Source: Schmidtea polychroa
Taxonomy: Eukaryota
Reading direction: 5' to 3'
DNA: 64,000 nt
Assembly: GCA_044892525.1 (NCBI GenBank)
Contig: CM097885.1
Span: forward strand, 31,374,001-31,438,000
How positions within the stretch are numbered: the stretch's first letter is position 1; each line of letters starts with the position of its first letter. Below, one piece after another: positions 38,705-64,000 of the stretch. The position numbers and the translations under genes are program-made. The notes under the pieces were generated by a model, which was given only the letters and a program-made list of their open reading frames with translations, did not search any database and was not told where the DNA came from.

Positions 38705-39238
38705 GTATAATTATATATACTCCGACTTTATCCGACATTATTTAAAAACAAGTCAATAAAATCTAACAAATTATCAAGAAATTAATTAAATTTGTCTTAG
38801 AATTAACACTAAAACCTTAAATTTTTAAAATATTCTTTCAATTAACCCGAAATTCACAAAAAGGTTAGTAATAATGTTAGTAAAATCACGCTAACATCAA
38901 CTGTTGGGCTGAGTCGAAAATTTAATCGTTGAAAAATAAGAAAATAGAGAAGTAGAACATTAAGAAAAATAAAAATAAAATAAATAAAATCAGAAATAAA
39001 ATAGAATAAGATATAAGGAAAATAATAATTAAGACATAAGAATTAAAACAAAAAATAAAATTAAGAAAAGATTAAAATAGAACAAGTTGACAAATAAATA
39101 AAGAGGAATTCAAGAAATAATAAGAAAATTAAGGAAATAAATAGAAAAACATATTAAAAATAAAGAAAATAAGGAAAAAACAACCTAAAAACAAGAAAAT
39201 TATATTAAATTAATAGAAATAAGCGGTACTCAACTCTG

Positions 39239-39272
39239 ATTGGTCCGCACAAATAAGAATTTGATATATATA
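39239..39272 (+). promoter_or_regulatory. Candidate LTR promoter (reverse CCAAT box plus TATA)
   Basis: ATTGG at 39239 and TATATATA at 39265; donor-like AG|GTAAGA at 39321. Confidence 0.4.
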
Positions 39273-41481
39273 CAACTACCAAAAACATTAAATTTACTGT
39301 TAACCCCGAGCATTTCATAGGTAAGAAAGAATGTTTACTGTTGTTACTGTTAACCCCGAGCATTTCATAGGATCGACACTACTAGCCAAGCAACCGTCAT
39401 TCAGAAAACTCCACATCTATTCAAAACCAGTTCAGAGACCGAAATACCATTCATCACAATAATCGACATCCAACGGACCACCATTGGAACTATTTGGAAC
39501 GAACAACATTGAATTTTGACTCAGCCTAACAATAGTAAGGGGTATTTCATTTGTTTATAGATTTATTTAAGTATTTGCAAAGCTAATAGTAATGTTAAAT
39601 ATTAACGATTAAATATTTCAGTTAACTCTCTTCATTTGATTCTCCATTTTAATAACTTTAACGTATTGATGGAATTTGTATTATTTAAGTATTTCAGAAT
39701 TAATAAAATATTTTTATCCAGATGTCCGTATTTTATTTGAATTAAAGATTTTATGAATTTTCATTTAACGAGTAACGTGGAGTTGAGATACTCCATGTCA
39801 TGGTATGAGGTGCCTTCGGGAGCTCAGCCGGTGGACATGGAGTATTTCAATCACGCAGCTAGATTGGGCCGAAATGTGAAGGCTTCTTCACGGGTCCTAT
39901 CGCTGAAGATGCGACTAAATTATCACAATGGGTTATGGTTAAAAGAATCGCGGGTAGACAATGATTTCACAAAGATAGTCGTACGAATGAAGGGATTTTC
40001 AAGGATTTGCACAGTGATTGAGGGCGTCGCATCCTTTTTCTTTCGTCAAGTCGTTTTCGTAAATCTTACCCCTATTGAAAAATGAGATCCAGACAACGAT
40101 TTAGTGAACTTCGTCAAAAATAACGACATCTCATAGTACGCTTCATCTGGAAACATGGTTTCATCAATTTAATTGCGACAACGTCTATTTGCCGGACTCA
40201 GTAGAACTGATTTCGTATGAAATTCCGTAATCATAGACCCGATGTCATCTAGCCTGCCCAGATAGCATGTCAGGTTACGAAAGTATTCTAAAAACTTTAA
40301 CTGACTCGAAACTATAAAATACGAGATTCTACGAAAACCCCGCTAATATTATAATCAGAAAGTTTTTATAGACTTAGTTATTTCAAAAATTATAAACAGG
40401 TAAAATATCACCAAATTTAATTAATAACATTTATTTCTCCAATAAGAGCCAGGTCATCACTGTATATATCCAAATTATTGAACCTGAGAGAAAATTTTCG
40501 AATGGCTAAGGACAGGTTTCATCGAGACGGCATTACATCTGAATAGGAAAACCCGAGTAGAATGACGTGAGTAGTAATAAGCTTCAGTATTTGGTAGAAT
40601 TATTCCCTCGACGACCACTGAAAAGACCCAATAAATTTCCAAACGATGGTGATCATTCACACAAGTTGATAAGGGTAAAATTCCGCGATGAGAACTGACG
40701 GCAGCATAAATCATGATTCAAATAAATCACTGTGCAGAGAAAATCATATGACAGCAGGATCGATAAAATCACCGTGAGAATGGCATACACCAAGTGAGTG
40801 AGATAAGATAGTAGCCATACACGAATCCATGTGGTGAGAGCACAGAATATCAGACTAGCATACATAGTAGTCGCGACACGTGACAGTCACAATAGGTCGA
40901 TAATGTAATCAACCAGTCGACAGCAGTATCCGCAAATTTGAACATGTGTTATGACCGATGAGATCTCCCATTAGAGTGTTAAAGTAACGGCTGATGTAAA
41001 CTCATCACATATTCTCAGACAAACGGTAGACAACATAGATAATCACATTCACTACCGAATTAAAAGTGCACTTCCAATAACAAATTTCGAATCCAAAATA
41101 TGTTGAGAATAGCGATAGTAATTTGTTTTTAATAAATTTAAATAGATAATTTATAGCAAGGTTTAGTCGCATACTATAATGTCCCTCTACTCAAGCGTTA
41201 TTATATTATTTCACCAATATTATATTTACACCCTATTAATTATTACGCCCCTCATGTATACCGTTAGATCAATAGAGAGTCACAGTTAATAGCATGCGTC
41301 AAACCGATGGCATTTGGTTAAATAAACTGTTTCAACAAATAAGATCCGTGGTAAAACCGGATTGTAGAATGAGTTTTCCTTTTTTTTTCGTCGGTCAAGC
41401 ATTCACGAATGGCCGTAGGTCGTATCTAATTTATTCTAAAATCGTATGTTCCACATTTCATTAGTATTATTTATAGCAAGC

Positions 41482-42234
41482 ATGCTACCAACCCCTAAAT
41501 CAGCATTACGGCCGTGCTTCTCGTGCGCGGATAAAAATACGGTGATAAAGGACCTACAAACTCAGATTGGACGTTACAAGAGGAAGATAGACGAGCTGGA
41601 AGGGACATGGTTTAGTCCCGCTCGGATGAAAGAGATCCAAAAGAAGCTCGATCGTAGCGAGCATTGCCGGGACGCGCTAATATCTGAGAGCCGTGCCCAA
41701 AGAAGTCTAATCAGAGAACAATCCGAGGCATTGCATAAGGTTTACGTGCAGGCGGCTACAACCCGAAAAATAGTGCAGATTCCCATCCGAGAGGCCGATG
41801 ACATCTTTCCGCCTCATCACAACCTTTCCTCGAATCCATCTCCACCGTTCAAGAGACCGTGCCGAGACTGCGTCGAAACCGAATTGTCCCCCAAGCGACC
41901 AGATGTAGTCATCACGGGTACCAGTAAGCCTCCCACTGCTAGTCCATCCGTATCAGTCACCCTTCTGCAAGTGGCATCTTCAAGCAAACCCAAGCGAAAA
42001 CAACTCTCTCGTGCAGAGCGCAAGAAGAGACAGCGCGAGCGCGCTACTACAAAGCCAAACATCCCATCAATAGAGGACTCAACCAACGGTGGCAACTCTC
42101 ACGTGTCCATCGACCTAACAACGGGACCCTCGGCACGAATCATATCAGCCGCTGGCGTAGTGTGGGAAGAGAACGCTTCCGAGTTTTTCAACCTCGACGA
42201 ACTATTCGCCGACACTGAATGGGAGAAACAATAA
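41482..42234 (+). CDS. LTR-encoded 250-aa protein (CxxC, coiled coil, basic NLS-like patch, acidic tail)
   Basis: Open ORF homologous to the solo-LTR ORF (ELEGTWFSPA; SKPKRKQLSR); TTATAG shortly before the ATG; AATAAA near 42359. Confidence 0.75.
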   Translation: MLPTPKSALRPCFSCADKNTVIKDLQTQIGRYKRKIDELEGTWFSPARMKEIQKKLDRSEHCRDALISESRAQRSLIREQSEALHKVYVQAATTRKIVQIPIREADDIFPPHHNLSSNPSPPFKRPCRDCVETELSPKRPDVVITGTSKPPTASPSVSVTLLQVASSSKPKRKQLSRAERKKRQRERATTKPNIPSIEDSTNGGNSHVSIDLTTGPSARIISAAGVVWEENASEFFNLDELFADTEWEKQ

Positions 42235-63025: not shown

Positions 63026-63202
63026 GGGTGGATGAAAAGATGAAAAACTAAAAACCGGGACGTATATCCCAAACAAAAAAAAAAAAAAAATTAAAGTATT
63101 GTAAAAGTATTCAAGGGACTGTAACCCAAACTATTAAATTTTATATCAATGTATACGTATAAGTCGCACTATAGCGCACCATTAACTGTACATATTATAG
63201 AT

Positions 63203-63883
63203 ATGAAAATCGAGGAAATGATAGAAATTATGAGCGACGTAGAAGAGGGAGAGATTGAGACAGAAACAACAGAAACACAAACGCTAAAGGCCGAGTTACG
63301 GGAAGAGAAATACGAAAACGGGAGATTAATAAACAAATACCTGGAGGACCGGAAAATGATAAAGGTGTTAAAGAAAGAGTGCGAAACGTTGGGGGAAATA
63401 AAAAGAGAAACGGAAGAGGAAAATGAATGGCTACACGAACAAAGGAAGCGAGGGAAAAACTGGGAAAAGATAGCGGAAGAACTATGGAAAGAGAGGGCAA
63501 GCTTCAAAGCAAAGGAGGTAATCCAAGACTACTGGAAAACTGAGGCGAAGGAGCGCCAAACAGCTATAAATAAATTAAAACGACAACTAGAAGAAAACCA
63601 ACGGGAAAGTAAAGAAATGAGGAAGTGGGTCCGCAAATATAGAGAAATAGAAAGAAAACATCAAGAAAACGAACAAGATCTCCTACAAATCGAGCTAAAA
63701 AGAAACCTTGAAAAGAAAAGGGAAGAAATTAGACGCTTGGAAAAAGAAATTAGACATCTAAAGAGAGAAGCCCGTGAAAAAGACCGACAATTGGAAATGC
63801 TGCCCGAGTTAAGACACAGGGTAATTAAAGCAGAGTCCACCTTGATGAGAATCGGCGAAAATAATCCAAATCAGAACCATTAA
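63203..63883 (+). CDS. Coiled-coil cargo protein, about 226 aa
   Basis: Open ORF (63149-63883); likely start MKIEEM after TTATAG-AT. Confidence 0.75.
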   Translation: MKIEEMIEIMSDVEEGEIETETTETQTLKAELREEKYENGRLINKYLEDRKMIKVLKKECETLGEIKRETEEENEWLHEQRKRGKNWEKIAEELWKERASFKAKEVIQDYWKTEAKERQTAINKLKRQLEENQRESKEMRKWVRKYREIERKHQENEQDLLQIELKRNLEKKREEIRRLEKEIRHLKREAREKDRQLEMLPELRHRVIKAESTLMRIGENNPNQNH

Positions 63884-64000
63884 ATTAAGGGTCATTAAAA
63901 CCAATTGTAAATAAACATAATGAATGTATAATAGTATCATGCGAGGCGAGATAATGATAACAATGATGGTATTGATGATTCTGATGGAGAGCAAACAAAT

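Follow-up and report, generated by a model that had tools for sequence, protein, structure and literature searches.

A giant Burro/GYPSM1-type Ty3/Gypsy element of Schmidtea polychroa with a chuvirus-like, probably class III envelope gene and conserved cargo

The Burro/GYPSM1 elements of planarians have been described by Arkhipova and Yushenova (2019; PMC6431247) as longer than 30 kb, with an internal region of up to 25 kb, a first open reading frame (ORF1) of 4,873 aa, MATH/TRAF, BIR, ankyrin, BCL2, Ubi/SUMO-like and dUTPase-like domains, and an in-frame envelope gene (env); BIR is given for Burro1-4 and left unstated for the element of Dugesia tigrina, so that it is perhaps variable. The same review noted a likeness of the Burro env to gypsy Env as well as matches to mononegavirus fusion proteins, and proposed that the elements are proviruses which interfere with apoptosis and ubiquitination. 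Publications from 2007 to 2019 already cover these kinds of domains, an env in frame and the notion of a provirus; in the literature we searched, we found no study testing the 2019 provirus proposal and no further work on Burro cargo or env. Here, we describe a giant element of this type in a 64,000-nucleotide stretch of the Schmidtea polychroa genome (contig CM097885.1, positions 31,374,001 to 31,438,000; "the window"), which begins at window position 38,902 and continues past the window end. To the published picture we add selection data, a probable class III assignment for Env, and a wider clade of relatives with swapped cargo.

In the Burro-like element of D. tigrina (PMC6431247), which has the same giant polyprotein plan, MATH/TRAF is found in an accessory ORF as it is here, but upstream rather than downstream, and its ORF1 of 5,140 aa contains a midasin-like region and two knuckles instead of three. 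Burro1-4 of Schmidtea mediterranea, compared by published description, agree with the window element in their size of about 30 kb, multi-kb long terminal repeats (LTRs), single polyprotein of roughly 4,700-4,900 aa, three CCHC knuckles, and the succession of Ubi/SUMO-like region, BCL2-like region and in-frame env between gag and pol. Both also have MATH/TRAF, ankyrins, Smc-like coiled-coil regions, accessory ORFs, tandem repeats and very many copies. The window element differs in that MATH lies outside the polyprotein, in a full RING-zinc-finger-coiled-coil-MATH TRAF gene downstream, and in having a C-terminal membrane unit and an LTR-encoded ORF, neither of which is mentioned in section 7 of PMC6431247. 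It also differs in that Pfam scans of its ORFs gave no BIR, so that "IAP" denotes only the RING in the leader ORF, which argues against its being Burro1 itself, and in that no dUTPase-like domain was matched by Pfam in the 117 aa scanned of the spacer between protease and reverse transcriptase.

In errantiviruses, elements of the Drosophila gypsy type that are a quarter of this size and without such cargo, env is a separate ORF after pol. They too are Ty3/Gypsy elements with a captured viral fusion protein, infectious in their case (PMC12440569), whereas their env is derived from baculoviruses and the one here is chuvirus-like. Anakin of mosquitoes (PMC7642597) is an LTR element with a chuvirus-type glycoprotein inside its LTRs and proposed as an envelope; it belongs to BEL-Pao, whereas the present element is Ty3/Gypsy, its env sits in the polyprotein frame between gag and pol, and it carries apoptosis/ubiquitin cargo. 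Gypsy fragments beside Jingchuvirales glycoproteins in insects are reported in PMC10084718.

A recent, high-copy insertion

The giant element belongs to a high-copy Ty3/Gypsy family of Burro/GYPSM1 type that is still amplifying, and the copy here was inserted very recently. An earlier sequence-only reading had placed the start of the element at 38902, which proved exact, and had proposed looking beyond the contig end for the 3' LTR and the target-site duplication (TSD). Both were found by a search of the 781-Mb, AT-rich assembly with the element's first 5 kb: the 3' LTR begins 818 bp past the window end and is identical to the 5' LTR at 3868/3868 bases, which implies that insertion was very recent. 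The whole element measures 29,784 bp, slightly short of the published "exceeds 30 kb", with LTRs of 3,868 bp and an internal region of 22,048 bp, and every cargo ORF lies inside the LTR boundaries. The primer-binding site (PBS), also claimed earlier, complements the 3' end of a host tRNA-Pro(TGG) plus CCA at 18/18 positions; its 18-mer has 1,058 exact matches genome-wide, which may include related families using the same 18-mer, against 0 for the reversed control. Matches to the element's first 5 kb fall mostly on four large contigs. Of the features of Metaviridae, the element has TG...CA LTRs, TSD, tRNA PBS, and gag followed by a pol ordered protease, reverse transcriptase, RNase H and integrase (PR-RT-RH-IN).

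Gag with its CCHC knuckles (Pfam marks two stretches, and three knuckles are visible by eye) and the four Pol domains with their catalytic motifs lie in one open frame of 4,732 codons, which bears out the claim of an intact gag-pol. At 14.2 kb this is the longest ORF, so that the further claim of a sequence stop-free over more than 25 kb does not hold. The frame runs, with no frameshift, in the order gag-UBL-Bcl2-env-PR-RT-RH-IN-ankyrin-membrane unit (UBL, ubiquitin-like domain), and the PR-RT spacer of about 200 aa can be aligned with relatives. Seven small ORFs stand alongside, all on the + strand, as had been said of the cargo. The LTR and the leader hold one each, and five lie downstream of the polyprotein ORF, the last of them crossing the window end. 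The seven ORFs wholly within the window, polyprotein included, span 19,191 of 25,099 bases. Because the small ORFs are spaced by AT-rich stretches with AATAAA-like words, they are probably expressed from their own or subgenomic mRNAs; no convincing splice joint was seen in assembled contigs from four sequencing runs. Contigs of two runs (DNA or unknown type) covered the element in 30/30 bins, as did those of one further run whose type is guessed to be RNA, mostly at 90-95% identity; these contigs show that the element is present in two studies, as sequence rather than transcription. Self-BLAST of the element gave no internal duplication.

Several side observations concern the insertion and its copies. 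The flanks (window 38067-38687 and L011:6054-6670, L011 being the locus that holds the 3' LTR) are inverted copies of each other at 94%, and the element therefore seems to have inserted in the middle of a foldback or MITE-like (miniature inverted-repeat transposable element) repeat. The tRNA-Pro(TGG) genes form a long tandem array of 475-bp period (G000:C1 from 130,901,009; L057), and the tRNA end that primes the element has 1,555 genome matches. Element copies arranged head to tail about 26.2 kb apart occur at G000:C2:177.68-177.73 Mb, where the LTR is shared, and at C4:46.24-46.29 Mb. The coding strand of window 45584-63025 is A-rich (41-43% A), with a peak at third codon positions.

The envelope gene and its relatives

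The PF24664 family matched by Env (Table 1) is the Monjiviricetes fusion glycoprotein, here in frame between gag and pol. When an env profile was compared with the PDB, herpesvirus gB was returned in 30/31 rows, each weakly (E 0.03-0.5); these matches point to class III and not to the gypsy-Env likeness reported in 2019. By these profile matches, Env is a chuvirus-like and probably class III fusion protein.

A search for env over 1.84 billion representatives gave 1,047 matches at E <= 0.001, the best 150 of which were examined. Among the matches listed, the top ones are mostly elements with env inside a polyprotein (22 proteins were scanned with Pfam), and the lower ones are stand-alone glycoproteins of 600-700 aa, one of which clusters with insect proteins named Glycoprotein. 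The closest proteins are 43-45% identical over gag-UBL, and the env family is kept across lineages at 25-40% identity. In an unrooted env tree of 36 rows, all 16 of the 16 envs linked to gag, protease or RT fall on one side of a branch with SH-aLRT 88, and the 20 stand-alone glycoproteins fall apart from them; the envs here thus differ from the Anakin case in grouping away from the sampled stand-alone glycoproteins, although no Anakin sequence was identified in the tree. An RT-RH tree of 11 rows, without named references, groups the window element with other env-bearing relatives, and the resemblance between the two sets of groupings suggests one old env capture, kept since. No relatives were found in viral or prokaryotic genome collections. 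One polyprotein relative, HBK71150.1, is filed under a Flavobacteriaceae genome bin and is probably eukaryotic contamination.

Four metagenome loci carry, to varying extent, the plan gag-(helix+UBL)-(Bcl-2-like)-env-PR-RT-RH-IN-membrane unit. In the loci L054 and L055, the slot of the membrane unit is taken by repeated modules of about 95 aa that are FN3-like, an assignment based on an Atlas value of 0.90 with low recognition and on weak IGF1R/CD45 matches. Both also have extra protease domains and, downstream, a coiled-coil ORF and an RNase T-family exonuclease ORF, and the polyprotein of L055 holds one more FN3-like membrane unit; these features are at L054:11375-13473 and at L055:10617-12666 and 4805-5107. 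The ORFs scanned in these two gave no TRAF or ankyrin match. In L056, env and pol are present and no UBL or Bcl-2 match was obtained. Judged by gene content, the relatives keep env and pol but swap cargo.

Cargo and selection among copies

Homology searches upheld the IAP-type RING, closest to cIAP1/2, the full TRAF and the ankyrin blocks of the sequence-only reading (Table 1). Of the three UBLs it had named, UBL2 stands: its model superimposes on ubiquitin with a Z of 10.0 and a root-mean-square deviation of 2.1 over 76 residues, and a profile including relatives matches ISG15 at E 5.5e-5. UBL3 stayed below threshold and UBL1 had no supporting match, and for neither did family profile scores rise above 300 shuffles. 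For codons 771-1690, AF2 gave a poor model (pLDDT 52), whose fold-search matches were all ubiquitin-like, for UBL2. A C-terminal di-Gly is absent from all three candidates, which therefore look like integral domains and not like conjugated modifiers. The Bcl-2-like domain, weak and without a PDB match when taken alone, is supported through its relatives, since 4/9 aligned members match PF00452 (best E 2e-5) and the family profile matches Bcl-xL at E 2e-3; it carries a GGW motif, which we take to be BH2-like. Two membrane glycoprotein-like units had also been proposed. Env is one of them; the other, at the polyprotein's C-terminus, has signal-like and transmembrane (TM) segments and one N-glycosylation sequon, and its ectodomain drew blanks in Atlas, Pfam, PDB and homolog searches, gave a single-sequence model with pLDDT 37, and was not matched by a profile of the relatives' FN3-like module. 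Across families, the coiled-coil ORFs show at most a tentative similarity, of just E ~0.004 plus a short basic-Trp motif defined post hoc.

Env and most of the cargo are under purifying selection among copies. Neutral cargo, and cargo outside the 3' LTR or missing from other copies, would have counted against the sequence-only reading, which mostly withstands these checks. Relative to the window copy, we counted each variant once and corrected for transition bias; of eight divergent loci, one (L047) failed to align and was excluded. Env, the most constrained, has 56 synonymous and 5 nonsynonymous variants, a nonsynonymous-to-synonymous ratio (pN/pS) of 0.03 (4 loci). The ratio is 0.09 for pol (1 locus), 0.17-0.22 for the UBL regions, 0.21 for Bcl-2, and 0.19 for both the C-terminal unit and TRAF. 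Constraint does not differ between env and pol (Fisher p 0.13), and env is more constrained than the Bcl-2 region of the same frame (Fisher p 0.002), so that frame-keeping alone does not explain the constraint on env.

Open frames recur among the copies, counted in best-scored matches, a set that favours intact copies: the 4,732-codon frame is open in 17/30 and 32/43 of them, and TRAF has no internal stop in 88/89. Since many copies are 97-99% identical, and the RING ORF variants are uninformative, one could hold that the cargo is neutral captured sequence which looks intact merely through the youth of the copies. This is most improbable and already largely refuted by the synonymous excess found in 11/12 regions after the transition-bias correction, and by frames that stay open down to 71% protein identity for the RING ORF (144/150 scored matches stop-free) and 83% for MATH (148/150 stop-free). 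Beside these counts, we note that some copies with 99% identity in the polyprotein and 96-97% in TRAF have a RING ORF just 82% identical, which suggests either leader exchange or fast evolution.

At least 150 genome matches to MATH, at 83-100% identity to the element's, could alternatively speak for cargo kept for the host's benefit, the element furnishing genes of the TRAF, Bcl-2 and IAP-like kinds for regeneration or immunity; TRAF/MATH genes are reported to be expanded (121 domains) and expressed in S. mediterranea (PMC6109357). We consider this improbable, because the cargo checked is found at no fixed locus but in young copies, dispersed and with differing flanks, because relatives have different cargo in the same slots in the style of viral accessory genes, and because the host silences BURRO1 through PIWI, its RNA going up on smedwi-2 knock-down (PMC8532177). 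Since the element carries TRAF copies, the number of host TRAF/MATH genes counted in such genomes may be too high.

Proposed life cycle and other features of the window

The purifying selection, the position of the cargo inside the LTRs and its recurrence in many copies support a working envelope and working cargo. The 2019 provirus proposal was based on domain homology; the selection pattern is its first quantitative support and names testable targets. We lean towards the reading that the Burro/GYPSM1-type element acts like a complex endogenous virus, with an entry step into other cells. The polyprotein would be threaded through the endoplasmic reticulum (ER) in the fashion of a flavivirus polyprotein, an internal signal sending Env into the lumen, the Env TM segment bringing Pol back to the cytosol, and a second signal and TM segment giving the C-terminal unit a type I topology in the membrane. 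The pieces would be freed by the signal peptidase of the host and by the element's own protease; a candidate protease-site motif, its pattern written after viewing the sequence, occurs 7 times, several of them at domain borders, whereas 1,000 shuffles gave a mean of 0.4 and no more than 3. The Bcl-2-like domain, which would retain the env signal, could be tail-anchored by it and keep Gag beside Env; cores might then bud as enveloped particles that use class III fusion to get into further cells of the animal. Cells producing the element, or infected by it, would be kept alive by the Bcl-2-like, IAP-type RING, TRAF, ankyrin and UBL products, which would also dampen signalling in stress and immunity.

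That these proteins serve the element follows from purifying selection, but where they act does not. The membrane proteins of an intracellular giant retrotransposon could instead work in the producing cell, in particle assembly at the ER or in fusion of neighbouring cells, while the cargo serves only the survival of stem or germ cells as the element transposes, with no extracellular infectious step. An RNA of about 26 kb and a 1:1 Gag:Pol ratio without frameshift, as we infer them, would be unusual for a virion and fit this account, which is possible though on balance doubtful: a fusion-protein family kept at 25-40% identity and constrained like pol finds its simplest explanation in an entry step.

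Several points weigh against such a virus-like cycle. The env statistics come from 4 loci and those of pol from 1, all against the window copy only; the copies are related, and the variants are therefore not independent; the RING ORF has 2 synonymous and 4 nonsynonymous variants, too few to use. Each gB match of the env profile is non-significant, the env signal segment falls under the hydrophobicity threshold used, and signal cleavage sites were judged by eye, while UBL1, UBL3 and the fold of the C-terminal unit are all unconfirmed. In S. mediterranea, finally, neither BURRO1 RNA interference nor RT inhibitors rescued the smedwi-2 phenotype (PMC8532177), which leaves Burro activity there without a shown effect on host cell fate. 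For the possibly infectious, host-manipulating, retrovirus-like agent of the sequence-only reading, an idea already in PMC6431247, selection supports a working env and cargo, and we infer the infectivity and host manipulation.

A broader reading, to which we give tentative credence somewhat short of an even expectation, would place Burro at the cargo-rich end of a deep lineage of infectious Ty3/Gypsy viruses. This lineage would go back to one capture of a class III fusion protein inside the gag-pol frame and would have gained accessory genes as large DNA viruses do (Bcl-2, UBL, TRAF, IAP-RING, ankyrin, FN3-like surface proteins, DEDDh exonuclease) and swapped them between lineages; the family described here would at present replicate as an enveloped virus, its RNA about 26 kb long, and spread from cell to cell in the host. 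If so, part of the reported planarian TRAF expansion would be element-borne. Should the element prove infectious, a reverse-transcribing virus of very large size, equipped with its own genes against cell death and for signalling, would live in a regenerating animal, which would bear on somatic mosaicism of stem cells, PIWI control and the limits of retroviral genome size.

Table 1. Features of the giant element, in window coordinates
Feature	Position	Strand	Remarks
TSD CAAC, 4 bp	38898..38901		second CAAC directly after 3' LTR
5' LTR, 3,868 bp, TG...CA	38902..42769	+	identical 3' LTR at window-equivalent 64818-68685 (L011:1818-5685)
LTR ORF, 264 codons	41440..42234	+	coiled coil and Pro/basic region; no family match; pN/pS 0.22 (9 loci)
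PBS for tRNA-Pro(TGG)	42777..42794	+	7 nt past LTR; 18/18 complement of host tRNA 3' end plus CCA
Leader ORF with C-terminal IAP-type RING	43091..43597	+	top PDB match cIAP2 RING, E 2e-10
74-bp tandem repeat, six copies	44179..44618		leader
Polyprotein ORF, 4,732 codons stop to stop	45584..59782	+	first Met is codon 116 (45929)
Gag: capsid and CCHC knuckles	45929..46843	+	PF03732 E 3e-9, PF00098 E 8.5e-10
Candidate UBL1	47915..48148	+	low-confidence model; unconfirmed
UBL2, ubiquitin fold	48434..48712	+	helical segment ahead; relatives with aligned helix+UBL module
Candidate UBL3 (weak)	49391..49603	+	Pfam ubiquitin E 0.003, sub-threshold
Bcl-2-like domain with GGW motif	50144..50638	+	weak alone: E 0.05-0.15
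Env	50726..52603	+	internal signal-like segment, Cys-rich ectodomain, TM 52460-52516; PF24664 E 5.5e-70
Pol: PR, spacer, RT, RNase H, integrase	53117..56530	+	Ty3/Gypsy order; Pfam
Two ankyrin-repeat blocks	56702-57373, 57803-58453	+	Pfam; pN/pS 0.14
C-terminal type I membrane unit	58781..59779	+	signal-like segment, 6-Cys ectodomain, charged stalk, TM 59585-59641
Small coiled-coil ORF	59916..60302	+	pN/pS 0.35
TRAF, full-length (RING, zinc fingers, coiled coil, MATH)	60340..61776	+	separate downstream gene; TRAF2 E 6e-28, TRAF6 E 4e-14
Coiled-coil ORF	61919..63025	+	pN/pS 0.19
Coiled-coil ORF	63125..63883	+	covered by 1 locus only in copy comparison
222-codon ORF, start	63924..64000, on to window-equivalent 64592	+	signal-like and TM-like segments by eye; missed by the sequence-only reading

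Elsewhere in the window, a small ordinary Gypsy element, just distantly related to the giant one, occupies 2523-7465 on the - strand (ORFs 3157-5229 and 5230-6045); it has short direct repeats and encodes PR-RT-RH-IN. The segment 4833-5014 recurs at 16037-16218 with 74% similarity. Sequence between about 19600 and 32900 is duplicated in tandem, the near-identical copies being spaced about 6.4-6.5 kb apart and rich in ATT microsatellites, and a fragment of a hAT transposase, comprising the dimerisation domain, is found at 37452-38096.

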